A DNA stretch of 64,000 nt from Sulfurospirillum sp. UBA6810 (GTDB lineage: Bacteria; Campylobacterota; Campylobacteria; Campylobacterales; Sulfurospirillaceae). How positions within the stretch are numbered: the first letter of the stretch is position 1; each line of letters opens with the position of its first letter. A program made the translations under genes and the position numbers. The notes beneath the pieces are model-generated. The model was not told the DNA's origin, searched no databases, and saw nothing but the letters and a program-made list of their open reading frames with translations. Shown in pieces: positions 24,108 through 43,928 of the stretch. The DNA is taken from assembly GCA_002469305.1 (NCBI GenBank), contig DKEY01000016.1, positions 72,501 through 136,500 on the forward strand, written 5' to 3'.

Positions 24108-25196
24108 ATGATTTATCGTTTTACTATATGCTTTTTTTGCTTTTTCCATCTCTAAAATAGCATATCGTTGTGTGGATTGAATGTTTTGATGTCCAAGAAC
24201 TTTCGCAGTTACTTCTAGAGAATACCCATTATTGACTATTAAAAAAGCGATAAGATGCCTAATAGAGTGTATTGTAAAATCTGGTAAATTTAGCTTTTCT
24301 CTACACTCTTGATGAACACGAAAGAAAGTTGTATAAGTAATAGGGTTTTTAGTTTTAGGTTTTTCAAATACATACTTAGCATCTGGATACATCAATCTTA
24401 GTTTTTGTAAAGCTTTTATTTGAAAATCTTCCAAATAATAGTACTGATTTTTCCTTGTCTTAGTTTTTGTATAATTTAGAAAATATAACCCTTTTGTTAA
24501 ATCAACACTACTCCAGGGCAACGTCACAGTTTCGTTAAATCTTCTACCATGCAAAAGAACTAAATAGAGAGTTTTATGCAATTGATTTTCTATATTATTC
24601 ACATAGACAAGAAACTTCTTAACATCCTTTTTAGGCATAGAGAAATACTTTTTATTATCATATTTTGGCATTATCAAACTAGCAGATGGATTATACCTAT
24701 ATATCCCATTATCCTGTAGATAAGTATAGAATTTTTTAAATGCCGATACTATCTTTTCAACTGTGGCAGGCCTTCTATATGTAAGAAGTTTATTGATATA
24801 TATTTGAAGGTCATTTGCGGTTACATTTCTGACATCCGTTGTTTTAAAATCAGCACTAATATATTGATTGTATATTGATTTGTAATTCTCTCTAGTATTT
24901 TTAGCAATCATAGGGTTTTTAAACTCTAAAAACTCTAAAAATAGTTTTGGGAAGAAAAGGTTTTCAACATCATTTCCATTCAAAGCTGATGCTAATTGTA
25001 AATCAGCTATTAGATTTAATCTTATTTTATAAGCATCATACGCTGACATGCCATTCTTTTCATAGCCAACGATTTGTGTTCTTGTTTTCTTATTTGATGT
25101 AAAACGAACTATAAAAGCTTTTCCTTTTTTAGTCTCTTTTAGATAGACTCCTTGGAACTCGCTCTTTTGAGTTAGTGACAATAAAGAGTTACTCAT
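24096..25196 (-). CDS. tyrosine site-specific recombinase; candidate shufflon (Rci-like) recombinase
   Basis: Catalytic signature LLHGRRFNET (Arg), HSIRHLIAFL (H-x-x-R), LGHQNIQSTQRYAIL (His...Tyr). It is the only recombinase in the window and lies 0.8 kb from the first cassette site. ATGA start/stop overlap with the upstream XRE gene. Confidence 0.85.
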   Translation of the reverse strand: MSNSLLSLTQKSEFQGVYLKETKKGKAFIVRFTSNKKTRTQIVGYEKNGMSAYDAYKIRLNLIADLQLASALNGNDVENLFFPKLFLEFLEFKNPMIAKNTRENYKSIYNQYISADFKTTDVRNVTANDLQIYINKLLTYRRPATVEKIVSAFKKFYTYLQDNGIYRYNPSASLIMPKYDNKKYFSMPKKDVKKFLVYVNNIENQLHKTLYLVLLHGRRFNETVTLPWSSVDLTKGLYFLNYTKTKTRKNQYYYLEDFQIKALQKLRLMYPDAKYVFEKPKTKNPITYTTFFRVHQECREKLNLPDFTIHSIRHLIAFLIVNNGYSLEVTAKVLGHQNIQSTQRYAILEMEKAKKAYSKTINHLLL

Positions 25197-25498
25197 TTTT
25201 TCAATATCTTGTTACTGTTTTTCAAAAGAGTGCGTGAAATTTCTTGACTATTTGGAATGATTTTATGCATATCTACATTGAATATTTTTGAGATCATGTA
25301 GATATGCTCCATATTAAAGTACTTATTTTCTCTATTTGCTTCTGCATGTCCAAAAAAAGTTGGTGAATTAAACCCCATTAAATTTGCTATTTCTAATTGA
25401 GAATACCCTTTTTCTATTCTAATACTTTTAATTTTTAATGAAATAAGTTTATTTACAACATCTATTTCATCTTTTTCGGCAGTTAGATTATCTTTCAA
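25193..25498 (-). CDS. XRE-family helix-turn-helix regulator
   Basis: IRIEKGYSQLEIANLMGFNSPTFFGHAEAN is HTH_3-like. TTG start with AGAGGA RBS. Translationally coupled to the recombinase. Confidence 0.7.
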   Translation of the reverse strand: MKDNLTAEKDEIDVVNKLISLKIKSIRIEKGYSQLEIANLMGFNSPTFFGHAEANRENKYFNMEHIYMISKIFNVDMHKIIPNSQEISRTLLKNSNKILKK

Positions 25499-25511
25499 AA
25501 TATCCTCTCGT

Positions 25512-25523
25512 TTCCTATAGGAA
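25512..25523. promoter_or_regulatory. perfect 12-bp palindrome TTCCTATAGGAA upstream of the XRE-recombinase operon
   Basis: 14 nt upstream of the TTG start at 25498. A second imperfect dyad ATTATTC-N10-GAATAAT lies at ~25535..25558. Confidence 0.4.
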
Positions 25524-25619
25524 TGATTGGACGTTATTATTCTATATAGAAGGAATAATTTCTACACCGTATAGGGAGGATTAGAGTAAAAAAGAAGATT
25601 TTGAGACTTTATTTATGTA

Positions 25620-25853
25620 CTAATCTTTTATAAGATCGTTGATTGATATGTTAAAAATTTTTGCTATTTTAAAAATATGTTTTAAATTGAACCGTTTACT
25701 TGATGAACCGTTTTCCGCTTCAGCATAAAAACTTGAAGATTGAAAATCCATCTCTTTAGACATTTGCAATTGAGATAAATTTCTATTTTCTCTCTCTCGT
25801 CTAATATTTTTAATAATCGTAAGGTAAAACTTATCAAACTCTTGTTCACTCAA
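25620..25853 (-). CDS. XRE-family helix-turn-helix regulator (paralog of 25193..25498); start uncertain
   Basis: IRRERENRNLSQLQMSKEMDFQSSSFYAEAEN...FNLKHIFKIAKIFN parallels the neighbouring XRE protein. I prefer the TTG at 25853, which has GGAG 7 nt upstream. The track start at 25910 abuts an operator-like motif and covers a TATAAT. Confidence 0.55.
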   Translation of the reverse strand: MSEQEFDKFYLTIIKNIRRERENRNLSQLQMSKEMDFQSSSFYAEAENGSSSKRFNLKHIFKIAKIFNISINDLIKD

Positions 25854-25909
25854 AAGGAGTCTCCATAAATAAAAAGTATGTATTATATATAAAATAGAAC
25901 TTATTATCA

Positions 25910-25930
25910 ATCACGTATTAGTGGTAATTT
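25910..25930. promoter_or_regulatory. operator-like motif ATCACGTATTAGTGGTAATTT upstream of the distal XRE gene
   Basis: Near-copy of 54660..54680 (19 of 21 positions). Contains the imperfect dyad CAC-N7-GTG. Confidence 0.4.
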
Positions 25931-25981
25931 AATTTAATTTCAATAATTTCAAGTAAAAGATATTATTAGAAAAAATTATTT

Positions 25982-25993
25982 TGTAACGGGTAC
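25982..25993 (+). repeat. shufflon core site R1 (TGTAACGGGTAC)
   Basis: Exact 12-mer heading cassette S1. Confidence 0.85.
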
Positions 25994-26543
25994 GATTACA
26001 AACAGATTGCTGGATGCTATCGTTATAACAAGTAAAGTTTATCAAGAAAAAAGCAATTCTGATGTTGCTTTGGCTAGAACAGTTGGATATGGAATTTCAA
26101 ATAATACACTAGGATATTATGATGGAAAATTTTGGAGAAAAGTAAGTAATAATTATATTTTAAGCGATTCTTTTACTTCTCAAAGAGTATATGACTCTTG
26201 GGTGTCAACCAATGCTTCAAAACTAGAAGGACTTAGTGATAATGGGTTGCTTTATAGTGTTGGATATGGTTCGAGAGTTTGGGGAATTGTAGATTATTAC
26301 AACCCAGGATACGGTGCAAAAGATTATTGTGCTGACCAGGAAATGAGACTTCCAGAGTTATCTGAAACACGAGCATCAACAAGTGCTGGTATCCCTAGTC
26401 TTTCTGGTTGGACTTGGACTAATACAAATAATCCAAATATCCCTAGTGGAGGAGCTTATAAAAGATATACTTGGAGTGGGACATCCACTAGTAGTCAATA
26501 TGTCCACTTAAACTACAAAGAAGTGTTTAGATGCATTAAATAA
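25983..26543 (+). CDS. silent shufflon cassette S1 (alternative C-terminal module, lectin-like class)
   Basis: Frame open from the core site: VTGTITNRLLDAIV... No RBS or ATG. Contains CADQEMRLPELSET and ends FRCIK. Confidence 0.8.
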   Translation, partial: VTGTITNRLLDAIVITSKVYQEKSNSDVALARTVGYGISNNTLGYYDGKFWRKVSNNYILSDSFTSQRVYDSWVSTNASKLEGLSDNGLLYSVGYGSRVWGIVDYYNPGYGAKDYCADQEMRLPELSETRASTSAGIPSLSGWTWTNTNNPNIPSGGAYKRYTWSGTSTSSQYVHLNYKEVFRCIK

Positions 26544-26563
26544 TAGTCGATTATAAAGCATTA

Positions 26564-26575
26564 TGTAACGGGTAC
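26564..26575 (+). repeat. shufflon core site R2
   Basis: Exact 12-mer, 20 nt after the S1 stop, heading S2. Confidence 0.85.
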
Positions 26576-27083
26576 GGTAACTAATTATTTATTAGATGCT
26601 GTACCTTGCGTAACAGATGGAACATCAAACTGCTATAACAACACCGTAGCCAAAAATGTCACAAAAGCTATAGTTAATAATGTCGTTTATTCATGGGATG
26701 GAACATCTTGGTTTAGTGGGAGTAATTATTTAATAAACGATAAAAATTCAAAAATAACTGAAGTGACAACAGATAACCTTCTTTGGGCAACCGTAGGCTC
26801 TTTGGCAGTAGCAGGGAAAACCACAGCAAATAATTTATACTATGATGGTGGGAATAGTAGAAGGAGTTGGTCAAGTGCGAATTCTCTTTGTCAAAGCAAA
26901 GGAATGAGGCTTCCATATTTCAATGAAACAAACAATCAAATAAGTGGAGGGGTTTCTTCTTACCTTGATGGAACAATTACAGGAACTTTATCTGGAGGAA
27001 ATTATAAAAATTGGTTTAACACAAACTATAGCGATTGGCAACCACTTACATTTACGGGAGATTATGTTAGGTGCGTAAAGTGA
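26565..27083 (+). CDS. silent shufflon cassette S2 (lectin-like class)
   Basis: Frame open from the core site: VTGTVTNYLLDAVPCVTDG... The track ORF 26763.. is only its distal part. Contains CQSKGMRLPYFNET and ends YVRCVK. Confidence 0.8.
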   Translation, partial: VTGTVTNYLLDAVPCVTDGTSNCYNNTVAKNVTKAIVNNVVYSWDGTSWFSGSNYLINDKNSKITEVTTDNLLWATVGSLAVAGKTTANNLYYDGGNSRRSWSSANSLCQSKGMRLPYFNETNNQISGGVSSYLDGTITGTLSGGNYKNWFNTNYSDWQPLTFTGDYVRCVK

Positions 27084-27095
27084 TGTAACGGGTAC
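27084..27095 (+). repeat. shufflon core site R3
   Basis: Exact 12-mer immediately after the S2 stop, heading S3. Confidence 0.85.
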
Positions 27096-27597
27096 TGTGA
27101 CTAATAGCTTATTAGATGCCGTACCTTGTAGTTATTCTGCTTGCTATAGTAACACAATAGCAAAAATGGCAAAAATAGGAATTAATAGTGACAATATTCT
27201 ATTATCTTATGATGGTACGTATTGGAAACAAAAAAGTAATTTTTCTTTATATGTTAAAAACCACACCATTGATGGCAACACATATACTACTGTTCAAAAC
27301 TTTGCATTAAAGCCTAGTTGGAGTGAAGGATGGGCATCAAGACCTATGCTTTGGTATGATAGCGGTCACTCTATTCAGTCAAAACTTAATGCATATAATT
27401 ACTGTGTTTCTTTAGAAAGAAAGATGATAACACTTTCTGAAAGTACAGCTGGCGGTGCAAATGGTGTGCCATATTATTATACATGGAATTGGTTTGATAA
27501 TGGAATTTTTACAGGGTACGGTACTCATCTCTACATGAATAGTAGCACAGGTGCCGTATATGCTACAGATGCTAAATATTTTAGATGTGCCAAGTAA
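27085..27597 (+). CDS. silent shufflon cassette S3 (divergent lectin-like class)
   Basis: VTGTVTNSLLDAVPCSYSACYS... ending YFRCAK. The first ~143 nt are nearly identical to S13, in inverted orientation. Confidence 0.8.
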   Translation, partial: VTGTVTNSLLDAVPCSYSACYSNTIAKMAKIGINSDNILLSYDGTYWKQKSNFSLYVKNHTIDGNTYTTVQNFALKPSWSEGWASRPMLWYDSGHSIQSKLNAYNYCVSLERKMITLSESTAGGANGVPYYYTWNWFDNGIFTGYGTHLYMNSSTGAVYATDAKYFRCAK

Positions 27598-27618
27598 TAT
27601 AACCCTTATTTAAATTTT

Positions 27619-28182
27619 CTATTGAGGAACACACAAAAATTGATTACCAATTGTCGTTGGACAACTAGCTATCTTATTATCGCTAGATAACTGGCAAGAG
27701 CTGCTTGGCGCAGCTCTTAGTTTCCAATTATCTTCACACCAAAATACCCTTTTTGGTGTCATAGAAAAATCACTTAATGTTGCGGTTATTTTTGTAGTAG
27801 GAATACCATACCCTAATATTGTAGAACACCCATATGAGCTATTAACATTGGGGGAAACTAGCCACCATGATGTGCAATGTCTTATTGTTTGATTGTTTAA
27901 AATAGGAACCGTACTACCATAGCCAACTGATATTTTTCCACTTGCATTACTACTTGTTTCTGTTAGCCAATTCCATCCATTATAGGGAGCTTTACTAAAA
28001 TGAGCCGTTTTGTATGGATATGCTATATCAGAGGTAAGCACCATAAAGTTATTCCAAGAAAAACCTGATAAGTTAAATAAGAAAAATCCACTATCCCCAT
28101 TTGATCCCAAGCTTATATCAAATAATGAATAGTGAGTACTTTTAGCATCCAACATAGAGTTAGTAATAGCCGTACCCGTTAC
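27619..28182 (-). CDS. silent shufflon cassette S4 (FLCVP class)
   Basis: VTGTAITNSMLDAKSTHYSLF... ending IGNQFLCVPQ. Shares identical 5' (~52 nt) and 3' (128 nt) blocks with S8. Confidence 0.8.
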   Translation of the reverse strand, partial: VTGTAITNSMLDAKSTHYSLFDISLGSNGDSGFFLFNLSGFSWNNFMVLTSDIAYPYKTAHFSKAPYNGWNWLTETSSNASGKISVGYGSTVPILNNQTIRHCTSWWLVSPNVNSSYGCSTILGYGIPTTKITATLSDFSMTPKRVFWCEDNWKLRAAPSSSCQLSSDNKIASCPTTIGNQFLCVPQ

Positions 28183-28183
28183 A
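28172..28183 (-). repeat. shufflon core site R4
   Basis: GTACCCGTTACA on the + strand, heading S4. Confidence 0.85.
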
Positions 28184-28191
28184 ACGCACTA

Positions 28192-28827
28192 CTATCTTAC
28201 ACAACGAACATATTTTTCTTCAGTCGCAGGTCTTCTGTCTCCACTGCTAGAATTTCTCCATACCCAATAATTTGATGTGCCACTTGTGCTTGTTGTTGAA
28301 GTCCATGTATATGCCTCAGAAAAGCTCGGGACTCCGCCTGATGTACCAGCAGAGCCACAAGGATTATATGAGCTATTTCCCTCAAGATGTGTTTCTGTAT
28401 ATGAAGGCAATCTCATTCCTCTAACGGCACAGATATTTGTGCTATTCATGTGTTCATTAACATAATTACACCCTGCTGTCACCCAAGTTGAAATACCAAA
28501 ATGAGTCAATGTGTATCTTATATTAAAAGGCGTACTTGTATCAGTATAATATAAGCCATTGCTTGCTTCTAGATATGATGTTTTTACAACTAATATATTT
28601 TCATTAGACTGAGAACCAAGAAGTAGCATATTGTCACTTAATCGTTCCCATTTAGATAGATAAGGCTTTCCTAATTCTGTATATCTAGCAACAACATCGG
28701 ATGAGTTTTTAAAGTAACCATATCCAATACTTCTTGCTAAAGCACATTCTCCACTTCCAGTGTATGCTGAGCAATTTGTTGTTACAAGCACAGCATCTAA
28801 TAAATAATTAGTCACCGTACCCGTTAC
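28192..28827 (-). CDS. silent shufflon cassette S5 (lectin-like class)
   Basis: VTGTVTNYLLDAVLVTTN... Contains CAVRGMRLPSYTET and ends YVRCVR. Confidence 0.8.
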   Translation of the reverse strand, partial: VTGTVTNYLLDAVLVTTNCSAYTGSGECALARSIGYGYFKNSSDVVARYTELGKPYLSKWERLSDNMLLLGSQSNENILVVKTSYLEASNGLYYTDTSTPFNIRYTLTHFGISTWVTAGCNYVNEHMNSTNICAVRGMRLPSYTETHLEGNSSYNPCGSAGTSGGVPSFSEAYTWTSTTSTSGTSNYWVWRNSSSGDRRPATEEKYVRCVR

Positions 28828-28828
28828 A
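28817..28828 (-). repeat. shufflon core site R5
   Basis: Exact reverse-complement 12-mer heading S5. Confidence 0.85.
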
Positions 28829-28833
28829 TATTA

Positions 28834-29424
28834 CTATTTATACCAAACATCAGTTCCATATGAAGAGCAAGAAGCTACTTTGCTGCTGTAAGGATAATAT
28901 TCATACCAACAGCCACTATATCCATATAACCAAGCTGAAGCAAATGAAGCTCCATCCAGTTTCCAATCCCTTAAAAGTTTATTTATGTTTGTGTCATATG
29001 TTAATGAATTGCATTCTGTTCTCCAGTTTAAAGGTATTTGCTCATAGCAATATTTATTATACCCCTTTGCTGTAATCGTAGAAGCTACATTATTGGAATC
29101 TCTATAAAGTGTAGAAGTTGAAAAGCTTCCATATGAAGATATCGCTTTATCATCAAATGTTTCATTTCCCCAAGTGGTAGCTATTGGCAACACATAATAG
29201 CCTGCATAACTTTGAGCTATAGCTTGAACGTAGGTAGTTGATGAACGAACTGTTAGGTCTTTATCAACTAAAGATGGGCCATAATACCAATAGTTACCAC
29301 TTTTAGTAATTAGTTTACTGTTTTTCAAAGCAACGCCAACGCTAATGGCATTACTATTGGTATATGGGTTATCAGTAACTAAAATTGCATCCAACATAGA
29401 GTTGGTAATTTTACTACCCGTTAC
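28834..29424 (-). CDS. silent shufflon cassette S6 (WYK class, related to the currently expressed tail)
   Basis: VTGSKITNSMLDAILVTDNPYTN... ending CSSYGTDVWYK. Preceded by the only degenerate core copy. Confidence 0.75.
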   Translation of the reverse strand, partial: VTGSKITNSMLDAILVTDNPYTNSNAISVGVALKNSKLITKSGNYWYYGPSLVDKDLTVRSSTTYVQAIAQSYAGYYVLPIATTWGNETFDDKAISSYGSFSTSTLYRDSNNVASTITAKGYNKYCYEQIPLNWRTECNSLTYDTNINKLLRDWKLDGASFASAWLYGYSGCWYEYYPYSSKVASCSSYGTDVWYK

Positions 29425-29425
29425 A
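29414..29425 (-). repeat. shufflon core site R6, degenerate (TGTAACGGGTAG)
   Basis: CTACCCGTTACA on the + strand. Single substitution at the last core position, changing VTGT to VTGS. Heads S6. Confidence 0.7.
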
Positions 29426-29920
29426 TTAGAAATTCTTATAGCATTTTATCTCATCTAAAAGTGGTGTTAAAGTGTCACATTTTGGAGAATAAGAATATTT
29501 TCCTTGTATTAACCTATAAGTACTTGCTTGGTCATTCATATAGGTATTCCCTGATGAGACAGCCCACTCTGATGTTATTGTTAAGCTAGGTGTAGTGTCT
29601 ATTCCATCTTGAAATAAGATTAAAGTTGCACCATTATAAACTCTTGCTGAAGAATAGCAGTCATTACATCCCACTTGTGTCCCTGTTGGTGATATTAGTA
29701 CCCACATAGGTGAACTATCAAGCCCATCTTGCCATACTTTAGCATATCCATCAGTTCTAGTTTTTTGGCACATTCCTGAAATATAAACAAAACCACTCCC
29801 ATATATATCGCAAGCATAAGTACTGTTGGGATTGTAGCATCTTAACATTGTATAATCTGGGGATAATCCATCCATAATACAAGGATTATCCAAAAGCCCG
29901 TTGGTGACAGTACCCGTTAC
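29426..29920 (-). CDS. silent shufflon cassette S7 (unique Cys-rich class)
   Basis: VTGTVTNGLLDNPCIMDG... ending IKCYKNF. Confidence 0.75.
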   Translation of the reverse strand, partial: VTGTVTNGLLDNPCIMDGLSPDYTMLRCYNPNSTYACDIYGSGFVYISGMCQKTRTDGYAKVWQDGLDSSPMWVLISPTGTQVGCNDCYSSARVYNGATLILFQDGIDTTPSLTITSEWAVSSGNTYMNDQASTYRLIQGKYSYSPKCDTLTPLLDEIKCYKNF

Positions 29921-29921
29921 A
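29910..29921 (-). repeat. shufflon core site R7
   Basis: Exact reverse-complement 12-mer heading S7. Confidence 0.85.
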
Positions 29922-29926
29922 TATTA

Positions 29927-30484
29927 CTAAGGAACACACAAAAATTGATTACCAATTGTCGTTGGACAACTAGCTATCTTATTATCGCTAGATAACTGGC
30001 AAGAGCTGCTTGGCGAAGCTCTTAGTTTCCAATTATCTTCACACCAAAATACCCTTTTATCAACAAAGGAATAATCATATATGTCTGAATATATCTTAGT
30101 AGTGGGGATGCCATATCCAAATAGTCCACCATCTCCAAAAGTGCTTATTGAGTTATTAGAAGCCATAAAGTCCATATTGGCATCTTTATAAATAGTTTGC
30201 TGTCCACCTATTGAAATTGTGCTTGCATATCCTACACCAGCATAAGAACTAGATGCATTATCTGTTATCCAATAAAAACCATTATGCGCAAACTTTCTTA
30301 TGTAAGATGTTTTATATGGATAAGATGAGTCTGCGGTTAAAAGTAAAAAATCTCTCCAGTTTGCATTATACCAACCAAAGACATACGCTCCATCTGTTCC
30401 ATTCACTCCTAAACCAATATTAAAAAAAGAGTAGTGAGTACTTTTAGCATCCAACATAGAGTTAGTAATAGCCGTACCCGTTAC
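29927..30484 (-). CDS. silent shufflon cassette S8 (FLCVP class)
   Basis: VTGTAITNSMLDAKSTHYSFF... ending IGNQFLCVP. Its ends are identical to S4 and its middle has diverged. Confidence 0.8.
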   Translation of the reverse strand, partial: VTGTAITNSMLDAKSTHYSFFNIGLGVNGTDGAYVFGWYNANWRDFLLLTADSSYPYKTSYIRKFAHNGFYWITDNASSSYAGVGYASTISIGGQQTIYKDANMDFMASNNSISTFGDGGLFGYGIPTTKIYSDIYDYSFVDKRVFWCEDNWKLRASPSSSCQLSSDNKIASCPTTIGNQFLCVP

Positions 30485-30485
30485 A
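30474..30485 (-). repeat. shufflon core site R8
   Basis: Exact reverse-complement 12-mer heading S8. Confidence 0.85.
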
Positions 30486-30487
30486 TT

Positions 30488-31168
30488 TTAAAATGCAAAT
30501 GTTATATTTAGTGTAAATGTACCATCTGCAAGAGTGCAAGACTCAATCCATTCTGCACCTATCGTAGTAAAATACTGTGAAGAAAATGAGCCACTCATGG
30601 AAACAGTTGAATATGTAGCACTTCTTTGTCTATCTCCATTTGCACCATACAAAGTACCCACCTGAGAACTGTATGGAATTGATGTCATATATGGAGCAGA
30701 AGAAACGAGAGATGGTTTTACATACATAAATGCTATATGGTTATATTCTCCGCAAGAAGCATACTGTGCCGCACTTTGTGTGGCTGAATAACTAAAACTT
30801 CTTACTTTTCCAAAATTAAATTGTTTTGCACCATACATATTTGTTTTATCTTGGTTTGATGCCGAATAGCTTGCTGTATATTTACAATTATTTGGACTTA
30901 TAAAGCTAAATGCTGGAGTAGCCTCCGTACATGCATTATAATATCCTGCATATGATGTTCCTATACTTCTTATTTGAGCAGTATTTCGTATAACCAAGTC
31001 TTTATCTATATAACTAGTTGTATTGTATTTGCTCCAGTAGTCTCCATTTTTTTCAATTAACTGATTTTCTTTTATAGCAATCCCTATGCTAATTGCTTCA
31101 TTATTAGTATAGGGATTATCTGTTACCAATATAGCATCAAGCAACCGATTGGTAACAGTACCCGTTAC
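30488..31168 (-). CDS. silent shufflon cassette S9 (unique class)
   Basis: VTGTVTNRLLDAILVTDNPYTNNEAIS... ending LNITFAF. N-terminal module shared with S6. Confidence 0.75.
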   Translation of the reverse strand, partial: VTGTVTNRLLDAILVTDNPYTNNEAISIGIAIKENQLIEKNGDYWSKYNTTSYIDKDLVIRNTAQIRSIGTSYAGYYNACTEATPAFSFISPNNCKYTASYSASNQDKTNMYGAKQFNFGKVRSFSYSATQSAAQYASCGEYNHIAFMYVKPSLVSSAPYMTSIPYSSQVGTLYGANGDRQRSATYSTVSMSGSFSSQYFTTIGAEWIESCTLADGTFTLNITFAF

Positions 31169-31169
31169 A
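31158..31169 (-). repeat. shufflon core site R9
   Basis: Exact reverse-complement 12-mer heading S9. Confidence 0.85.
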
Positions 31170-31775
31170 TCACCTTACACAACGTATATAGTAAGTATTA
31201 TCATAAGCGTTATTATCACCTGTTGATGTCCATCTGTAATAATATTTTGTATCTGATTTATGACTAGTGGCGGTCCATGTTCTTCCGCTAGGATGTTGAG
31301 GAACGCCGAGAGAGCTCCCTGCACTAGAACAGGGGTTATTGCTGTTTGTATTTGTAGCAGATGTTTCGTCATACCTTGGCAACCTCATTCCTCTAATAGC
31401 ACAAATATTTGTGCTATTCATATTGTCATTGACATAATTACAAGTAGCAGAAGCCCAGTTAGCAACTCCAAATTCACCATTAAGACTTTTGCCCACTCCA
31501 AAAACACCTGATGTTTTGGTATAATACAGTCCATTTCCTGCCTGAGCAAAAATATCTGATACTACGCTAGATAAAGACAAACCTTCTTCGTTATTTTTAA
31601 AGTTCAAAACATTCCCATTACTAGGGAAATACCAAATTTTATAATTAGACAACTCAACGTGCTTTCCATTAGTGGTTATTGCATGTTTTATACTTTTAGC
31701 ATTATCGCAACCTTCTTGTCCAGCAAATAAACAAAGGGCACCATCTAACATATTATTAGTAACCGTACCCGTTAC
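31170..31775 (-). CDS. silent shufflon cassette S10 (lectin-like class)
   Basis: VTGTVTNNMLDGALC... Contains CAIRGMRLPRYDET and ends YIRCVR. C-terminal half parallels S5. Confidence 0.8.
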   Translation of the reverse strand, partial: VTGTVTNNMLDGALCLFAGQEGCDNAKSIKHAITTNGKHVELSNYKIWYFPSNGNVLNFKNNEEGLSLSSVVSDIFAQAGNGLYYTKTSGVFGVGKSLNGEFGVANWASATCNYVNDNMNSTNICAIRGMRLPRYDETSATNTNSNNPCSSAGSSLGVPQHPSGRTWTATSHKSDTKYYYRWTSTGDNNAYDNTYYIRCVR

Positions 31776-31776
31776 A
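31765..31776 (-). repeat. shufflon core site R10
   Basis: Exact reverse-complement 12-mer heading S10. Confidence 0.85.
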
Positions 31777-31783
31777 AACTCAA

Positions 31784-32287
31784 CTAAAAAGAATTAATAC
31801 AATCATTATTTGAAAAAGCTTTAATAGTAGAATCCTCTCTTGTGCAAAAATGATGCTGATAACCAGTAGAAGAAACATTCGCATAAGAACAGTCATACCA
31901 AGAATAGGAACTGCTACATCCTGAACTTGTGCATTTTACAAAAGAAGGTCGAATATTTATATTTGAAGAAATCCACCCAGTCCCATATTGTGTATCTGCC
32001 TTAATATGAGAAGGATTGTTTTCATAAAAAGAATATGATTCTAATACAATATTACTGTAAATTACTTTGTTGATATTTTTACACTGAGTGGTTGAACTAT
32101 ATACCCAAGTTTTTGTTAAATATCCACTACCATTGTCATAATACAAAAACAAACCATCTCTGTTAATTATCTTATTGTTAAAAACAAATTTAGGAACGCT
32201 AGAGTACGTTCTGCTAGTAGAATAGCAATTATTTTCACTTGTGCAAAGTACGGCATCTAACAACCGATTGGTAACAGTACCCGTTAC
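31784..32287 (-). CDS. silent shufflon cassette S11 (unique Cys-rich class)
   Basis: VTGTVTNRLLDAVLCTSENNCYS... ending NNDCINSF. Confidence 0.75.
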   Translation of the reverse strand, partial: VTGTVTNRLLDAVLCTSENNCYSTSRTYSSVPKFVFNNKIINRDGLFLYYDNGSGYLTKTWVYSSTTQCKNINKVIYSNIVLESYSFYENNPSHIKADTQYGTGWISSNINIRPSFVKCTSSGCSSSYSWYDCSYANVSSTGYQHHFCTREDSTIKAFSNNDCINSF

Positions 32288-32288
32288 A
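32277..32288 (-). repeat. shufflon core site R11
   Basis: Exact reverse-complement 12-mer heading S11. Confidence 0.85.
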
Positions 32289-32303
32289 ACTTAAACTTGT
32301 GGC

Positions 32304-32795
32304 TTATTTTACACAACGGATATAAATATAAGCATCTGTTCTATATGGATATTCACTTACACCACTATAACAAGCAGAATAATAAGATGCGGAATAAGGA
32401 GAGGTCCATGTCCATGTAGTACAAGATGGTACACCATTTGTATTTCCATCAAGTTTAGATTGTGCTCTTGTAACCATGCTCATACCTTTGTCGGTACAAT
32501 ATGTTGTACTTGGACCATATTGTTTTTGTCCTCCTTGACACTTATCATAGAGAAGCCCATTCCCAGCAACACCATCTATCTCTGATTTTGTTCCACGCCA
32601 AGAGGAAAATGTATTATCTAATACTTGTGTGACATTGCTAATCGGTGACCAAAAAACACCATCATACTTGGCAACGATATTATTTTTATATCCATAACCG
32701 ACATTCCTAGCTAAAACTGAATTAGATGTGCCATTGTAGGCGTTATCAGTAAAAAGTACGGCATCCAAAAGGTAGTTTGTCACAGTACCCGTTAC
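32304..32795 (-). CDS. silent shufflon cassette S12 (lectin-like class)
   Basis: VTGTVTNYLLDAVLFTDNAYNG... Contains CTDKGMSM and ends YIRCVK. Confidence 0.8.
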   Translation of the reverse strand, partial: VTGTVTNYLLDAVLFTDNAYNGTSNSVLARNVGYGYKNNIVAKYDGVFWSPISNVTQVLDNTFSSWRGTKSEIDGVAGNGLLYDKCQGGQKQYGPSTTYCTDKGMSMVTRAQSKLDGNTNGVPSCTTWTWTSPYSASYYSACYSGVSEYPYRTDAYIYIRCVK

Positions 32796-32796
32796 A
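32785..32796 (-). repeat. shufflon core site R12
   Basis: Exact reverse-complement 12-mer heading S12. Confidence 0.85.
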
Positions 32797-32811
32797 ACTT
32801 AAACTTGTGGC

Positions 32812-33360
32812 TTATTTTACACAACGAAGATACAAGCTATATCCATCATGAATCCAATATCCTTGCTCCCCGCTATTATTCCATCCTAAAATATTTGGAT
32901 AAGGTGTATTTGCTATATAGTTTATGTAAGTATGTGCCCCTATTCCACCGCTAGACACAATAGGAGGTACTCCATTTGTTATCGCAAAAGTTGTTTCTGT
33001 TTTTAAAGGAACTCGCCATCCTATATTTGTGCATTGTTGAAAAGCCGAGGCATAGTTTAAAGTTGAATAATATCCTTTATTATCTGTATACCAGAGACTA
33101 GGTCCAGAAGCCCATCCAATGCCACCACTAGGCTGTAGGGCTTCTTTGCTAATTGAAGTATAGGAATTTCCAGTAATGGTGTGGTCTTTAACATATAAAG
33201 AAGAATTGTTTTTCTGTGTCCAATACGTACCATCATAAGATAATAGAACATTGTCACTATTAATTCCTATTTTTGCCATTTTTGCTATTGTGTTACTATA
33301 GCAAGCAGAATAACTACAAGGTACGGCATCTAATAAGCTATTAGTCACAGTACCCGTTAC
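32812..33360 (-). CDS. silent shufflon cassette S13 (lectin-like class)
   Basis: VTGTVTNSLLDAVPCSYSACYS... Contains CTNIGWRVPLKTET and ends YLRCVK. Confidence 0.8.
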   Translation of the reverse strand, partial: VTGTVTNSLLDAVPCSYSACYSNTIAKMAKIGINSDNVLLSYDGTYWTQKNNSSLYVKDHTITGNSYTSISKEALQPSGGIGWASGPSLWYTDNKGYYSTLNYASAFQQCTNIGWRVPLKTETTFAITNGVPPIVSSGGIGAHTYINYIANTPYPNILGWNNSGEQGYWIHDGYSLYLRCVK

Positions 33361-33361
33361 A
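33350..33361 (-). repeat. shufflon core site R13
   Basis: Exact reverse-complement 12-mer heading S13, 5 nt after the stop of the expressed gene. Confidence 0.85.
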
Positions 33362-33366
33362 TAATG

Positions 33367-36018
33367 CTATTTATACCAAACATCACTTCCTGCTGTGTTA
33401 CAAGAAGCTGTTGCATTTGCTTTTGTTGAATAAAATCCTCTACAGCTATAGCCTCCACTTTGTGTAACTGAGCTGTTCGGAATTTCAGAGATTGGATTAG
33501 AGCATGAGAAAAGTTGTCCGAAAGTAAAAATATTTACACCATTTACATAAACAAGACATCTTACAGTATCACCTGAGATATTATATGCACATGGATTCGT
33601 AATAGCCCAATTACTTAAATATGTTGCTCCACTACTATACCAATTTTTAGATGTCGTTGTATTGCTATTTAATACATTTGTTTCATAGCAATATTTACTA
33701 TAACCCTTTGATGTAATAGTGCCTATGACATTGTTAGAATCAATATAAATATCTGTTAAGGAAAATCCCCAAGCACTTTGAGCTTTATCATCGAAGTCTT
33801 CAGCTCCCCAAGTTGAAGCAACGGGCTTGGCATCCAACAATCGATTTGTCACCGTACCCGTTACAGAGTAGTACCATTGTTTCGCAGATGGGTTGTTTAC
33901 ATATGCTATACCGCCATCTAAATAGTTATTTGCAGGTGTCCCTGTGTAATTTGTTTCAGTGCCAGTATTAAGTGTTAAGTTTATTCTTGTACTGTTACTA
34001 GGTGCGCTTAAGTCTTCCCTTGAACCATCTGTTATTGCATAAGCTGTACTTGACTCATTAGCACAATCACTTGACCAGACTTTTTGACCTGAGGAATAAG
34101 TAGTATATCCTGAGTCTCTACAGTACTCAAGAGCCGATGTAATTCCCTCACCACTTAAATAAACTTTATATCCCACTAAAGAACTAGGCACTACTGACAC
34201 AAATTGATTTAAGCTTGTAGTGTTTATTTTTTGATTTACACCTGTGCCATTAAAACTTGCCATATTTACACCTGTGCAAGTTCTATCAAGTAGATTATTG
34301 CCTAAATGGTCTTGGACAACTACAGCTGCTTGTGTAACAAAATTCCCATCATATGTGTAACATACGGAACCATTTACAAGAGATGGGTATTTTAATATAA
34401 CACTTCCTGCAGGCACATTGCCTGAAGTATTTTGAATTAAATGAGCAGCTCCATTGCTAGAATAAGCATTTGCTACGCTTGAAACAGGAATTGCATCTGT
34501 AAGCAGGTTTTTAACATTTAAAGCACTCGGAGCGAAATAAAAAGGATACATATTATCAGTAAGTTCGCCTGCATAAGTGCCATCCGTTCCATTACATGTG
34601 CCTATTGAACAATCAGACACATTTATAAAATATGTTACACCTGTTGCTAAATCTGAAAAAATATCTCTTCCATTTACATGATTGCTCACTTGATGAATAC
34701 CGTCAGTAGAAGTCCAAATACTGTTTGATAAATAATAGTATTTATTTTGAGAAACAACGTAAGCATACACTCCATCATTTCCAGACTGAGAAGCATCATT
34801 AAACTCAAAAATATCCTCTAAAGTATCAGCTTGGTATATCCATACATTTGTCTCACCTGATACAGCAACATTTCCTTTTATCAGCTTATCAATGCCTCCT
34901 GTTTTATTTGCAATCCAAGCAGTTGTACCACTTGCAAACAAGTCAGATAGAGTAGAAAGAGCTGAAATATCTTTAGTAACCACAAAAGAGTTGCTTGGAA
35001 CTACCCAATAACCACCTGTTTCATAATCATCTTTTTTAGTAAAATCTAAACTTCCACCGAACTCCCCATTAGGCGCAGATGATGAAACTACAGAACCACC
35101 CGATTTGTCAAATAAAGAAGTAGCCATTAACAAAACCGTTCCTGTACCGTTATATAGTCCACCTGCGGAACTTCCACCATCCATATTGTGTTCGACCCAT
35201 TTATCACCGTTATGAGTATAAAACTTTATAACATCATCTATCTCAACTTTGGCACATAACCCTCTAGTTCCTGGTGTTGTATCTTCATTAAAATTTGACT
35301 CTTGAGTAAAAAATAGATTTCCAGTACAACCATCAGATGTGGTTTTTGTTGCATTTTCGCCACCAACTGTTCCAAGTTTGATGTACTCTCCTGTATTTGG
35401 ATCCCATCCATACACATCTAGTCCACCATTTCCATTTGGCACAAAATACTGTTTGCCCTCTTCCCCTGGATTTGGCAAATCAGAGATGTTTGATACAAGT
35501 ATTTTATCTGGATCGGAATTGATATCTTCAATAATATCTAATATTGTTTGAGTCTCTTGAGGTATGTTGATATAAAATGTTGAATAATCTGATGAAATCT
35601 TTTGGTTTGGTTCTAAAAATAAACTCGTATTAAAAAGTCTTTTGATATCATCGTTGACACCCGTTAAAACATTTTTGAGTGAAATTTTGCCATCAGCAAG
35701 TTCTATCGTGATACCACCTGACTCTCCACAGTAAGAGCCAGAGACATCACAAGGTTCATTTAATAAAGTTGTAAATTTTGCATTGACTATTATAGAGTTA
35801 AATGTTTGAAGCTCTGCTCTAGTTGGTGTTGCGTCCCCTGTATTGTTTATGTAACCAACTATTTCATTTAATAAAAAAGTTAATCTTTTGACATATTCAT
35901 CTATAGTTGCTTGTCTATCTTGTTCTAGCATTGTACCTGTAACTGAGGCATTAGAGAATGTCAGAACAGATACTATCATTATGATTGATAAAAATGATTT
36001 AAAAGCCTTGTTTTTCAT
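33367..36018 (-). CDS. 883-aa secreted protein: 718-aa constant part plus exchangeable 165-aa C-terminal tail (candidate pilus-associated adhesin, functional analogue of R64 PilV)
   Basis: Sec-type signal MKNKAFKSFLSIIMIVSVLTFSNA. In-frame core site at codons 719-722 (YYSVTGTVTNRLLDAKP). Tail ends CNTAGSDVWYK. Own promoter-like motif 36048..36078. Directly downstream of the pilus operon. Confidence 0.85.
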   Translation of the reverse strand: MKNKAFKSFLSIIMIVSVLTFSNASVTGTMLEQDRQATIDEYVKRLTFLLNEIVGYINNTGDATPTRAELQTFNSIIVNAKFTTLLNEPCDVSGSYCGESGGITIELADGKISLKNVLTGVNDDIKRLFNTSLFLEPNQKISSDYSTFYINIPQETQTILDIIEDINSDPDKILVSNISDLPNPGEEGKQYFVPNGNGGLDVYGWDPNTGEYIKLGTVGGENATKTTSDGCTGNLFFTQESNFNEDTTPGTRGLCAKVEIDDVIKFYTHNGDKWVEHNMDGGSSAGGLYNGTGTVLLMATSLFDKSGGSVVSSSAPNGEFGGSLDFTKKDDYETGGYWVVPSNSFVVTKDISALSTLSDLFASGTTAWIANKTGGIDKLIKGNVAVSGETNVWIYQADTLEDIFEFNDASQSGNDGVYAYVVSQNKYYYLSNSIWTSTDGIHQVSNHVNGRDIFSDLATGVTYFINVSDCSIGTCNGTDGTYAGELTDNMYPFYFAPSALNVKNLLTDAIPVSSVANAYSSNGAAHLIQNTSGNVPAGSVILKYPSLVNGSVCYTYDGNFVTQAAVVVQDHLGNNLLDRTCTGVNMASFNGTGVNQKINTTSLNQFVSVVPSSLVGYKVYLSGEGITSALEYCRDSGYTTYSSGQKVWSSDCANESSTAYAITDGSREDLSAPSNSTRINLTLNTGTETNYTGTPANNYLDGGIAYVNNPSAKQWYYSVTGTVTNRLLDAKPVASTWGAEDFDDKAQSAWGFSLTDIYIDSNNVIGTITSKGYSKYCYETNVLNSNTTTSKNWYSSGATYLSNWAITNPCAYNISGDTVRCLVYVNGVNIFTFGQLFSCSNPISEIPNSSVTQSGGYSCRGFYSTKANATASCNTAGSDVWYK
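33854..33865 (-). repeat. shufflon core site R14, the active site inside the 883-aa gene
   Basis: Exact reverse-complement 12-mer in frame at codons 719-722 of 33367..36018. Confidence 0.85.
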
Positions 36019-36047
36019 TTCAGACTCCTTACGAAATTATTCTAGAA

Positions 36048-36078
36048 TATAATAAATTTATAATTAAATAAGGCTTAA
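36048..36078 (-). promoter_or_regulatory. conserved promoter/operator-like motif P8 (in front of the adhesin gene)
   Basis: TTAAGCCTTATTTAATTATAAATTTATTATA. 29 nt upstream of ATG 36018. Overlaps the stop of 36075... Confidence 0.55.
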
Positions 36079-37049
36079 TTTATGGCAATATTTAGGGAAG
36101 TAGATAAACTCTCTGTTTCTGATAACTTTTCTGTATCACTCATAAAAGAAAAATTTTCATAGACGACATCTTCAACAAGAGTATTCAATTCAGCAGGAGA
36201 GACTTCTTTGATATAGTTTTTTAATTCCGCATTCAAAGAACCATACTCTATTTTTTTTATAATTCCCCTCAAGACACCTTTTGTGAGACTTGCTAGTAAT
36301 TGCTCCCTCTCTTCAGAGCTTATTACATCTCCTCCAACTTCATACTGTTTTGAGAGATATGCAACGCGGTTTAAAATAGTAAAAATTTTTGTAGTTGAAT
36401 CATATCTTGGTAAAAGTGCTGATGCAAAAGCAGCTTTACCAAACTCTTTATTTACAAGGTACTCATTTGTTTGTTCTAGTCTTTGCTCATAAAGAATTTT
36501 TCTTTTTTTCTTATAAGTATCAAGTTTTTCATCACTTGATTTAATTATTGTAACTGTTTCACCATCTACTGTTCCATTTTTTAAGATAGAGCTAACTTTG
36601 GTCCCTTGTTCCCCTCTCGCACTAAATGTAACTTTATCTGCTTCTACTTGCAAGAAAGAGGTGTCTTTTGATACTATTGTATTACACTCTTCTAAAGTAA
36701 TTTTATTCGTAGCCACTAAATCTGCGCACGTTGGCGTACCTTGTATATTTCCTTTTAAGTAAATTTTTACCGCTTCGCTGTATTTATTTAAAAGCAATCC
36801 ATCTTGATCTGAAAAATCATCATCATAAACCACTAATTCACTTGGCTTAACTCCATTTTGGAATAAAGACCTCGTTCCATCACCACTTTCATTAAAATAA
36901 ATTTGATTATATTTATGAGCTTCATTTGCTTTTTCAATAGTTTTTTGTGCTCTTTTCTCTGAAAATAAATCATTTACATCTTCTATACTTATTAAAGCAT
37001 CCCCTATCAAAAAAACAACAAGACTTATAAGTAAAAATGGAAATGGCAT
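36075..37049 (-). CDS. membrane-anchored hypothetical protein (start moved to MPFPFLL)
   Basis: AAGGAAAG RBS before the ATG at 37049. N-terminal hydrophobic anchor FPFLLISLVVFLIG. Part of the pilus operon. Confidence 0.55.
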   Translation of the reverse strand: MPFPFLLISLVVFLIGDALISIEDVNDLFSEKRAQKTIEKANEAHKYNQIYFNESGDGTRSLFQNGVKPSELVVYDDDFSDQDGLLLNKYSEAVKIYLKGNIQGTPTCADLVATNKITLEECNTIVSKDTSFLQVEADKVTFSARGEQGTKVSSILKNGTVDGETVTIIKSSDEKLDTYKKKRKILYEQRLEQTNEYLVNKEFGKAAFASALLPRYDSTTKIFTILNRVAYLSKQYEVGGDVISSEEREQLLASLTKGVLRGIIKKIEYGSLNAELKNYIKEVSPAELNTLVEDVVYENFSFMSDTEKLSETESLSTSLNIAIN

Positions 37050-37059
37050 TTTTCTTTCC

Positions 37060-37656
37060 TTACTTCTCAAACACAAATAAAATCATATTATCTGTATCGG
37101 TTCCACCCTCTGTATCAAAAGATGTTGCTTTGTCATTATAACTTTTTAAAATCGTGTCATAATTGTTTTTATAGTAAGACAAAAAGTCATATTCTAGCCC
37201 CTCAGATAAGGACAGAGGCAAGTCAGAACAATCGATAAAAACTTCGAAGCTTTTCGAGTTATTACTATCCTCTTGATAATACTTTCTGCAACCTTTACCC
37301 GTATTTCCCCATGTAACCATATACTCAAAATACGATTTAGTACCATCTTTTTCATCGGTTTCAGAAGAGCCTGTGTAAACCATATCGTGATTAGATAGTG
37401 TTGAGCAATTTGCTATTCTATAAGCGGTCATATCATTGTAGTAACCAAGCATAGAACAACTAGAATTTCTTTTGCTAACATACCCTATAAAAGGGTTAAA
37501 TATACCTGTTTCTAACTCTTTTCCACTATCATCAAACATTTTTTCTACTGCATTTTCATAACGCATAGCATGTATTTTACCAACAGCGAAATAGGAAAGA
37601 ATACCAATAATAACCAATACAAAAGTAAGCTCCACAAGAGTCATACCTTTTCTCAT
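37060..37656 (-). CDS. type IV prepilin-like protein (minor pilin/pseudopilin candidate)
   Basis: Class III signal MRKG|MTLVELTFVLVIIGILSYFAV with Glu at +5. ATGA overlap with the ATPase gene. Confidence 0.8.
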   Translation of the reverse strand: MRKGMTLVELTFVLVIIGILSYFAVGKIHAMRYENAVEKMFDDSGKELETGIFNPFIGYVSKRNSSCSMLGYYNDMTAYRIANCSTLSNHDMVYTGSSETDEKDGTKSYFEYMVTWGNTGKGCRKYYQEDSNNSKSFEVFIDCSDLPLSLSEGLEYDFLSYYKNNYDTILKSYNDKATSFDTEGGTDTDNMILFVFEK

Positions 37657-41018: not shown

Positions 41019-41019
41019 T

Positions 41020-42816: not shown

Positions 42817-42832
42817 TGATTATCCCTTTAAA

Positions 42833-42859
42833 ATAAGACGAGGTAAAACCTCGTCTTAT
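42833..42859 (-). terminator. intrinsic terminator/attenuator hairpin after the major pilin gene
   Basis: Minus-strand ATAAGACGAGG-TTTTA-CCTCGTCTTAT (11-bp stem) followed by TTTTAAA. Lies between the pilin stop (42868) and the next start (42816). Confidence 0.6.
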
Positions 42860-42867
42860 ATCTTTAT

Positions 42868-43921: not shown

Positions 43922-43928
43922 TCTAACC

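Follow-up and report, generated by a model that had tools for sequence, protein, structure and literature searches.

A probable multiple-inversion system with fourteen C-terminal tails beside a type IV pilus operon of Sulfurospirillum sp. UBA6810

Introduction

Why does a single 12-nucleotide (nt) sequence occur fourteen times, always read in the same frame, between a type IV pilus operon and a recombinase gene? The question is raised by a 64,000-nt stretch of DNA from Sulfurospirillum sp. UBA6810 (assembly GCA_002469305.1, contig DKEY01000016.1, positions 72,501 to 136,500), hereafter the window, in which the gene of a secreted protein of 883 amino acids (aa), the carrier, adjoins an array of thirteen further partial genes, or cassettes. 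A first-pass annotation had likened this arrangement to the shufflon of plasmid R64. Having compared the locus with its relatives, we consider it probable that it is a multiple-inversion system, or shufflon, by which a Sec-secreted protein encoded in a type IVb pilus operon acquires different C-terminal, receptor-binding tails.

To our knowledge, nearly all known shufflons come from enterobacterial plasmids of the IncI type, in which the recombinase Rci acts on the pilus protein PilV. We found no literature that links shufflons with Arcobacter, Campylobacterota or Rhs proteins. A survey of gene-altering inversions (PMC9881135) mentions neither Arcobacter nor Rhs, and a study of the expansion of Rci-type invertases (PMC11852207) does not mention Arcobacter.

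Results

A short core sequence is constrained as DNA

Searching the window for TGTAACGGGTAC with at most one mismatch gives 14 matches, all inside 25982-33865, with three on the + strand (25982, 26564 and 27084) and eleven on the - strand (28172, 28817, 29414, 29910, 30474, 31158, 31765, 32277, 32785, 33350 and 33854). The chance expectation is 0.06 copies, and 14 copies were reached in 0 of 100 shuffles. The number, orientation and confinement of the cores, including the single substituted copy, thus agree with what the first-pass annotation had described. The substituted copy, TGTAACGGGTAG at 29414-29425 (- strand), carries one mismatch: position 12 is G instead of C (GGGTAG), so that Ser replaces Thr. 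An identical change is found at about 8896 of L012 and about 952 of L003, two of the related loci described below, and its recurrence in these two other recombinase lineages suggests that position 12 is either tolerant or the edge of the functional site.

All 14 cores are translated in one frame. The reading given earlier, Val-Thr-Gly-Thr followed by a linker, holds for every copy and can be refined to VTG(T/S) followed by (V/I/A/K)(I)TNx(L/M)LD. In an alignment of the 14 sites, the sequence to the left of the core is unconserved and the sequence to its right is conserved at the codon level only. The codons GTA-ACG-GGT are present in 14 of 14 copies, and the T that precedes them is invariant although it is non-coding in the silent copies. 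Because ACG, which makes up just 6.4% of the Thr codons in 18 genes of the element, is fixed in all copies while the Val, Thr, Asn and Leu codons of the linker vary synonymously, the 12-mer is constrained as DNA and not just as peptide. The site is also asymmetric, with a conserved cassette side and a variable upstream side.

Thirteen intact cassettes look silent

Each core opens a frame of 163-226 codons, and the stop codon lies 0-20 nt from the neighbouring core. At the only tail-to-tail boundary (27597/27619), where the + block meets the - block, the gap is 21 nt, so that the wall-to-wall arrangement of frames previously put at about 165-225 codons is borne out by measurement. All 13 frames outside the carrier are intact, without stops or frameshifts, and their open stretch upstream of the core is only 1-12 codons long, compared with 724 codons for the copy in the carrier. 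A Shine-Dalgarno (SD)-like motif, sought between -4 and -18 of the first possible start, precedes 0 of the 13 cassettes and 15 of 19 ordinary genes in the window, which agrees with the earlier statement that these frames have no ribosome binding site. The accompanying statement that most have no ATG can be sharpened: an ATG is present in 4 of the 13 and is the Met codon of an N-S-M-L-D linker. We saw no signal peptide by eye in any of the 13, though their domains are Cys-rich and of extracellular type. With no SD-like motif, no visible signal peptide and upstream frames of at most 12 codons, the 13 cassettes look silent.

The cassettes are all distinct (pairwise identity 22-59%) and fall into several classes. 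Class A comprises seven cassettes with C-termini of the form (Y/F)xRC(V/I/A)(K/R), and class B two cassettes ending in CPTTIGNQFLCVP. A DVWYK C-terminus is common to the currently expressed tail and cassette 29414, and cassettes 31158, 29910 and 32277 have C-termini of their own, 31158 resembling 29414 in its N-terminal part only. At the far end of the array, the left flank of cassette 25982..26543 is fixed non-coding DNA. The Lcl_C domain (PF07603) is matched by two class A cassettes at 22.5 and 20.5 bits, short of the 34.9 required, and the top match of a class A profile to the Protein Data Bank (PDB) is the mosquito C-type lectin mosGCTL-6 (E 0.13). Half of the tails are possibly C-type-lectin-like; these sub-threshold signals hint at such a fold and do not establish it. 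An AlphaFold model of a class A tail, built from the seven window cassettes of that class, was discarded for its low predicted local distance difference test score (pLDDT 38.8).

The two class B cassettes have 3' ends (27625-27753 and 29930-30058) that are 99-100% identical over about 129 nt. Both contain one and the same hairpin with a 10-bp stem (27646-27669 and 29951-29974), which has a terminator-like score, yet lies within the coding frame (ASCPTTIGNQF).

The carrier belongs to a family with a conserved junction

The coordinates of the open reading frame (ORF) place one core at codons 719-722 of the carrier, in line with the earlier division into a constant part of 718 aa and a tail of 165 aa. 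The carrier has no match in Pfam or NCBIfam, and searching its profile against PDB sequences returned nothing. A word-indexed search with a four-sequence profile gave only one homologue; an exhaustive HMMER profile search of 1.84 billion proteins gave a family of 86 representatives, 37 of them below E=1e-30. When the carrier profile was used to look for related loci in genome and metagenome contigs, nothing was found. Most representatives (designated by P numbers) are 690-960 aa long and have an N-terminal region in common. At 100-250 aa before the C-terminus they carry a junction, (K/Y)QW(F/Y)YS-x-(S/T)G(T/S)..N.(L/M)LD, and the form QW(F/Y)YS..(S/T)GT..N.LLD is kept in at least 30 of the 55 representatives longer than 450 aa.

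Several tail types that are silent in the window are expressed elsewhere in the family. Tails ending in RCVR/K, like those of silent window cassettes, are expressed in P0049, P0051 and P0070, and a class B tail in P0057; DVWYK tails are found in P0050 and P0076, and ILVTNNPYTN-type tails in P0059 and P0087. Some short representatives begin exactly at the linker, among them P0062, a close relative of the window's expressed tail, as would be expected of silent cassettes annotated as ORFs.

The constant part is shared more widely. The window carrier (P0001) and the carrier of locus L011 are 26% identical over 576 aa (E 6e-31), and the module of about 550 aa that precedes the junction is also found at the C-terminus of Rhs-repeat giants (the L011 carrier, P0076 and P0079). 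The 790-aa protein P0090 combines a genuine prepilin N-terminal methylation motif (N_methyl, 28 bits) with the carrier module and the junction, and represents a PilV-like minor-pilin form of this system. The first-pass annotation had stated that the carrier is not a pilin; this is correct for the window gene, and P0090 shows that it does not extend to the family as a whole. A non-canonical prepilin leader was considered for the window carrier and rejected, since its hydrophobic segment lies ahead of the presumed cleavage point and not behind it.

The carrier as modelled by AlphaFold has a mean pLDDT of 70, with residues 290-560 (window about 34339-35151) above 90. This segment may represent either a novel fold or a diverged propeller; scattered weak beta-propeller matches of the model were not used. 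Just after the predicted signal-peptide cleavage site, codons 26-29 (35932-35943, - strand) lie in the sequence S-V-T-G-T-M-L-E-Q, which echoes the junction S-V-T-G-T-V-T-N-R-L-L-D, and (S/T)-x-L-L-E-Q is kept at the mature N-terminus of homologues P0002 and P0048. We rejected this place as a fifteenth site: of the 11 positions of GTTACAGGTAC, 2 disagree with the core, and the search that allowed up to one mismatch did not return it.

A recombinase of its own family lies beyond the array

The recombinase gene begins 786 nt past the last site, close to the 0.8 kb given before. Its catalytic residues R219, K246, H310, R313, H336 and Y345 (R-K-H-R-H-Y) are invariant in 13 homologues. Among NCBIfam models the top ones are XerA/XerD/XerC, all far below cut-off, and the top match in PLSDB is just 25% identical. 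Homologues are few, about 45 among 5.8 billion proteins, and a locus search with the recombinase profile found only 3 GTDB loci. Two small helix-turn-helix (HTH) genes lie between array and recombinase. The true start of the one nearer the array (25620..25910) is probably downstream of the listed TTG, and a homologue of the other (25193..25498) precedes the recombinase in every related locus (22-51% identity, 8 loci). The best sigma-70-like match between 23500 and 37500 (TTGATA-17-TATAAT, 11 of 12 positions) lies at 25910..25882 (- strand), at the 5' end of 25620..25910, and points towards the recombinase. On this consensus match only, 25882-25910 is a candidate promoter of an HTH-HTH-recombinase operon; as a whole, the sigma-70 scan is uninformative in such AT-rich DNA, with 79 promoters found against 66 +/- 7 expected.

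The same module recurs in related loci

Loci with related recombinases, here given L numbers, all come from Arcobacter, Aliarcobacter or Sulfurimonas. Together with the window they form seven recombinase lineages (58-67% identity): the window, L003, L005-L010, L011/L012, L014, L024 and L025/L026. In each lineage the order is cassette array, homologous small HTH gene, recombinase, and all sites contain CGGGTAC. The site is TGTAACGGGTAC in the window, TGTTTCGGGTAC in L011/L012, TTCTTCGGGTAC in L005-L010, TAATTCGGGTAC in L003, TAGTTCGGGTAC in L014 and L024, and TCT(A/T)CGGGTAC in L025; in every one of these, the window included, the encoded peptide x-(S/T)-G-T opens a ..N-x-(L/M)-L-D linker. The window has the traits of the module, namely a recombinase of the family (at least about 55% identical to protein P0003), an upstream HTH gene, CGGGTAC sites and a carrier module that ends in QW(F/Y)YS. 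A recombinase homologue of 49% identity in an ordinary chromosomal context is without an array. L025 contains a minimal version on one contig: a type IV pilus (T4P) operon, an 812-aa carrier with a site, a single silent cassette in inverted orientation, an HTH gene and a recombinase gene.

The module also serves a different kind of protein. In the chromosomal loci L011 (2929-9700) and L012 (2557-9700) of Arcobacter sp., it diversifies the C-terminus of an Rhs-repeat protein of 1639-1790 aa, the last 650 aa or so of which are homologous to the window carrier. In the metagenomic relatives L005-L009, the DNA downstream of the recombinase encodes a 2080-aa FG-GAP/RHS/TEN-YD-shell protein, followed by a small ORF, and an IS200-like Y1 transposase; this Rhs protein is without a site and is not a carrier. 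L014 has six TAGTTCGGGTAC sites in a single orientation at 532-3179, where no genes are called and most frames are broken by stops, and is either a decaying array or a long-read contig with indel errors.

Taking these loci together, we lean, by a little, towards the view that Arcobacter-like Campylobacterota have a portable tail-swapping module made of an HTH protein, a non-Rci recombinase and a linker site, which draws on a shared pool of binding-domain cassettes and would act as a general, programmable diversifier of receptor specificity, evolved independently of the enterobacterial Rci shufflon, on at least three display platforms: plasmid-encoded Sec-secreted proteins from type IVb pilus operons, chromosomal Rhs/YD-repeat giants and true prepilin fusions.

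Sister loci differ by an inversion that ends within the sites

L011 (GCA_049727765.1) and L012 (Arcobacter sp. Pygsuia-1, CP182343.1) have identical recombinases, 61% identical to that of the window, and flanks that are 99.99% and 99.87% identical. Positions 7783-9258 of L011 correspond to 8903-7411 of L012 reversed, and the ends of this inversion fall within two oppositely oriented sites; another tail is thereby attached to the carrier, and the cassette lying between the sites is turned round. The two loci further differ by one extra cassette of about 372 nt in L012 and by three substitutions beside one site.

A second set of relatives points the same way. L005, L006, L008 and L010 come from different metagenomes and have identical recombinases, and in them one invariant flank, AATAAAAAACTATAG, borders four distinct cassettes. 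Cassettes shared among L005-L010 differ in order, L005 and L008 being permuted with orientation kept. The left flank stays while the sequence to the right of the core moves with the cassette, and the exchange therefore takes place within the core. It is this comparison with related loci, and not isomers of the window array, that supports the shufflon interpretation.

The traced ends of Logan contigs (L001 and L021) all lie at static repeats longer than 31 nt, those of L021 at the class B repeat of about 129 nt, and are uninformative on isomers for that reason. An exact scan of metagenome contigs for TGTAACGGGTACNGTNAC gave 120 single chance matches, none of them related to the window, the pattern being too unspecific.

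Proposed mechanism

We propose that the recombinase 24096..25196 recombines pairs of oppositely oriented TGTAACGGGTAC cores, and that the small HTH protein or proteins encoded just upstream probably assist or control it. Each exchange would fuse the 718-aa constant part in frame to another tail of 163-226 aa, and the fusions are guaranteed to be in frame because the site sits inside the conserved linker VTGT-VTNxLLD. Under a signed-reversal model in which only convergent sites recombine, 33 inversions are possible, with 3 tails one step away from expression and 10 two steps away; all 13 silent tails can thus be reached by serial inversion, as had been suggested, and in at most two steps. We infer that the window recombinase catalyses the exchange and that the array is still active. 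The signal peptide, the gene order and the precedent of R64 PilV lead us to propose further that the carrier is an adhesin associated with the pilus, with a tail that determines partner or surface specificity; as PilV does in the liquid mating of R64, the tails most likely decide what this protein binds.

Several observations weigh against this proposal. Eleven of the 14 sites are in direct orientation, an arrangement that would persist only with an enzyme that, like Rci, avoids deletion, or with one of low activity. No rearranged copy of the window array was found in four datasets (Logan SRR5324008 and SRR1290771; Joint Genome Institute 3300001592 and 3300002596), whose contigs are 100% identical to and collinear with the window through sites 31158, 29910, 29414 and 28817. 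Switching is thus too infrequent in these samples to have fragmented or rearranged the assemblies; a low rate is still compatible with this result, and the window array could be inactive. The extra cassette and the substitutions place L011 and L012 more than one event apart, and their inversion may have been mediated by RecA between 37-60-nt repeats. The role of the recombinase in the array is drawn from association only, in the seven lineages, because its best scores are Xer-type and its similarity to Rci is generic. Pilus association and the adhesin role are read from gene order only, and the carrier model has no significant match in the PDB (best E 0.028, template modelling score at most 0.10), while the lectin-like signals of the tails stay below threshold.

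Alternative explanations

Tails might instead be replaced by homologous recombination or gene conversion over the linker of about 35-60 nt, as in Neisseria pilE/pilS or the orphan cassettes of Rhs and contact-dependent inhibition (CDI) systems, with the recombinase serving as a dimer-resolution or integration enzyme. The Xer-type scores of the recombinase would fit this, as would the orientation of 11 of the 14 cassettes like the expressed copy, which is also seen in orphan-cassette arrays, the 37-60-nt repeats of the sister loci and the one cassette by which L012 exceeds L011. Nevertheless we regard this explanation as unlikely. The identity common to the 14 window sites is only 12 nt and is kept at synonymous and non-coding positions, and 12 nt are too short for efficient RecA exchange. 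Moreover, the recombinase-HTH pair accompanies arrays in plasmid T4P as well as chromosomal Rhs contexts, which is unexpected for an enzyme of replicon maintenance, and the difference between L011 and L012 is a site-bounded inversion and not a conversion tract.

A somewhat fainter prospect is that the recombinase acts mainly by deletion or excision between direct sites, possibly with integron-like re-insertion of circles, and that variation is largely one-way. Tyrosine recombinases are generally able to resolve direct sites, and the site of expression is repeated in direct orientation at ten silent cassettes; the cassette number of L011 and L012 differs by one, and in L005 and L008 the order is permuted with orientation kept, a pattern that pairs of inversions yield as well. 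Against deletion stands the finding of both orientations in the window, in L011/L012 and in L025, whose inverted pair can only invert. The only event that can be reconstructed, that between L011 and L012, is an inversion, and an array of 14 cassettes would erode fast if deletion were efficient. It is harder still to credit that the array consists of small related genes in tandem, each expressed independently, with a common N-terminal motif and no programmed rearrangement. Neither SD-like motifs nor visible signal peptides accompany the Cys-rich domains, the motif includes a non-coding base and fixed rare codons, and one copy lies mid-frame in the 883-aa gene at a position conserved across the carrier family. 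Gene callers do annotate ORFs of 106-218 aa here, with ATG, GTG or TTG starts within or after the linker, and all 13 frames are intact, but intactness is equally expected of silent cassettes that are expressed periodically. We thus continue to favour a shufflon for this locus.

The array adjoins a pilus operon on a plasmid

Immediately upstream of the carrier, as the first-pass annotation had it, a type IV pilus operon encodes on the same strand a secretin, two prepilins, a platform protein and an ATPase (Table 1). The carrier is the last gene in three divergent loci, where it follows the ATPase, the minor pilin and a protein of about 340 aa. Its relaxase, Rep3-type initiator and topoisomerase identify the window (GC about 32%) as belonging to a large plasmid of mobilisable or conjugative type; the contig from which it comes is 174.8 kb long. 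PLSDB gave no match to 24000-44000 by megablast or to the carrier by tblastn. About 3 kb from the recombinase lies an ORF of 3583 aa (10463-21214, - strand). A 3580-aa gene with Eco57I-methylase, SNF2/ResIII and helicase domains has the same position by the recombinase in L015, a contig of a Sulfurimonas metagenome-assembled genome, which suggests a shared plasmid backbone.

Table 1. Features of the array, its carrier and the surrounding DNA, in window coordinates.
Feature	Position	Strand	Remarks
Carrier, 883 aa	33367..36018	-	Sec-type signal peptide MKNKAFKSFLSIIMIVSVLTFSNA|S (by eye)
Carrier constant part, codons 1-718	33866..36018	-	
Expression-site core, carrier codons 719-722	33854..33865	-	left flank encodes QWYYS
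Currently expressed tail, 165 aa from V of VTGT	33367..33864	-	
Silent cassette, 182 aa, class A (...LYLRCVK)	32812..33361	-	first ~70 aa near-identical to cassette 27084 (+)
Silent cassette, 163 aa, class A (...IYIRCVK)	32304..32796	-	
Silent cassette, 167 aa, type of its own (...DCINSF)	31784..32288	-	
Silent cassette, 201 aa, class A (GMRLP...YIRCVR)	31170..31776	-	weak Lcl_C/DUF1566 match, E=1.5e-4, below cut-off
Silent cassette, 226 aa	30488..31169	-	N-terminal part in common with cassette 29414 (-)
Silent cassette, 185 aa, class B (...CPTTIGNQFLCVP)	29927..30485	-	59% identical to cassette 28172 (-)
Silent cassette, 164 aa, 'LLDNPC' type	29426..29921	-	type also in L003, L005, L010, L014 and L025
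Silent cassette, 196 aa, behind variant core TGTAACGGGTAG (...DVWYK)	28834..29425	-	C-terminus resembles expressed tail
Silent cassette, 211 aa, class A (GMRLP...YVRCVR)	28192..28828	-	Lcl_C E=6e-4, below cut-off
Silent cassette, 187 aa, class B	27619..28183	-	last of 11 sites oriented like carrier
Silent cassette, 170 aa, class A, inverted relative to carrier	27084..27597	+	one inversion from expression
Silent cassette, 172 aa, class A, inverted	26564..27083	+	one inversion from expression
Silent cassette, 186 aa, class A, inverted	25982..26543	+	far end of array; one inversion from expression
Small Xre-type HTH gene, between array and recombinase	25620..25910	-	HTH_3 2e-7
Second small HTH-like gene	25193..25498	-	4-nt overlap with recombinase start
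Tyrosine recombinase, 366 aa, presumed invertase	24096..25196	-	Phage_integrase PF00589 8.4e-20
Conserved ~330-aa gene between minor pilin and carrier	36075..37076	-	syntenic homologues in L002 and L025
Minor pilin, 198 aa	37060..37656	-	prepilin N-terminal methylation motif
Type IV pilus assembly ATPase, 652 aa	37653..39611	-	27% identical to R64 PilQ over core
Platform protein (GspF/PilC-like), 371 aa	41020..42135	-	weak model match and synteny
Major pilin candidate, 201 aa	42868..43473	-	prepilin motif
PilN-type (type IVb) lipoprotein secretin, 586 aa	43929..45689	-	TIGR02520 1.8e-11, below cut-off; synteny
MobA/VirD2-type relaxase	58364-60730	-	
Rep3-type replication initiator	61909-62895	+	
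Topoisomerase (Topoisom_bac and Toprim)	6806-9325	-	

Discussion

Should mating-partner or surface specificity depend on the tails, the plasmid would carry a 14-way switch of host range or adhesion. That the module also serves Rhs-type giants suggests that programmed C-terminal swapping of surface-binding domains is more general than the PilV case, and a portable module, if it is one, would play a role comparable to that of phage tail-fibre invertases or diversity-generating retroelements. There are practical consequences as well. Many of the related recombinase contigs end within arrays, which indicates that arrays break short-read assemblies, and silent cassettes will be mis-annotated by gene callers as hypothetical genes. 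The short, asymmetric, in-frame site and the compact recombinase are a possible orthogonal addition to the toolbox of shufflon invertases homologous to Rci (PMC11852207).

Comparison with known systems

Several known systems share part of this design. Orphan cassettes of the Rhs and CDI polymorphic toxins are swapped through homologous recombination and are accompanied by immunity genes. Their arrays resemble the present one in that a long constant protein is followed by promoterless C-terminal cassettes that start at a conserved peptide motif, and some members of the carrier family are themselves Rhs-repeat proteins (P0076, P0079 and the L011 carrier). In contrast to these arrays, the window has a dedicated recombinase, sites in both orientations and no immunity-like genes between the cassettes, and its tails look like binding domains rather than toxins.

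Tail-fibre switches achieve a comparable outcome with another enzyme. Gin of phage Mu, Cin of P1 and Min of p15B are serine invertases that work with an enhancer and Fis, and Min has six crossover sites. Inversion systems of phage and plasmid tail fibres are mentioned in PMC9881135. As in the window, inversion in these systems swaps C-terminal receptor-binding domains on a constant N-terminus; the catalyst is a serine invertase there and a tyrosine recombinase here.

Tyrosine recombinases are also used by the vsa/hsd systems of mycoplasmas, in which one tyrosine recombinase acts on many short sites within coding sequence and one expression site is joined to many silent gene bodies. These inversion systems (Mycoplasma pulmonis vsa/hsd, HvsR) are cited in PMC9881135 and PMC11852207. 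A single recombinase, short in-gene sites and one expression site are common to them and the window. They differ in that a promoter-bearing 5' end is joined to whole silent lipoprotein genes, and phylum, site and cargo are others.

The nearest counterpart is the shufflon of R64 and other IncI1 and IncI2 plasmids. Both have a type IVb pilus operon, a carrier, an array of partial C-terminal ORFs and a tyrosine recombinase on one strand of a conjugative-type plasmid; both have sites in frame near the 3' end of the carrier, in both orientations, with a constant N-terminus and alternative C-termini; and in the copies of the R64 site sfx taken from NC_005014, as in the window, the sites are asymmetric and only the cassette side is conserved. 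Gene order and architecture therefore agree with the R64 logic first suggested for this locus, whereas three comparisons of sequence, with Rci, PilV and sfx, do not. The window recombinase is not Rci, with which it shares 22% identity over 188 aa, in the catalytic domain only (pairwise BLASTP E 1e-5). The carrier has no BLASTP similarity to PilV, no Shufflon_N domain (PF04917) and a Sec signal peptide in place of a prepilin leader. The 19-nt sfx, GTGCCAATCCGGTNNNTGG, contrasts with the 12-nt core TGTAACGGGTAC. The core had been called unrelated to sfx, and it is indeed not the sfx consensus; the sfx right arm TCCGGTAC (L019, NC_005014, 32200-34150) does have 6 of 7 bases, C(C/G)GGTAC, in common with AACGGGTAC / TTCGGGTAC, a sub-match that may be chance or a shared preference.

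The layout differs too. Cassettes in the window are complete and stand head to tail with spacers of 0-21 nt, whereas those of R64 form convergent pairs within four segments; the window has one or two extra HTH genes; and its T4P genes are only distantly related to those of R64 (ATPase 27% identical, secretin detectable by hidden Markov model only). The count of 14 tails against 7 in R64 agrees with the first-pass annotation. On this comparison the locus would be an independently built shufflon, with the largest tail repertoire that we are aware of, belonging to a small Campylobacterota family in which the module is also used by Rhs-type and pilin-fused proteins: the logic of R64 rebuilt from unrelated parts in another phylum, with twice as many tails.

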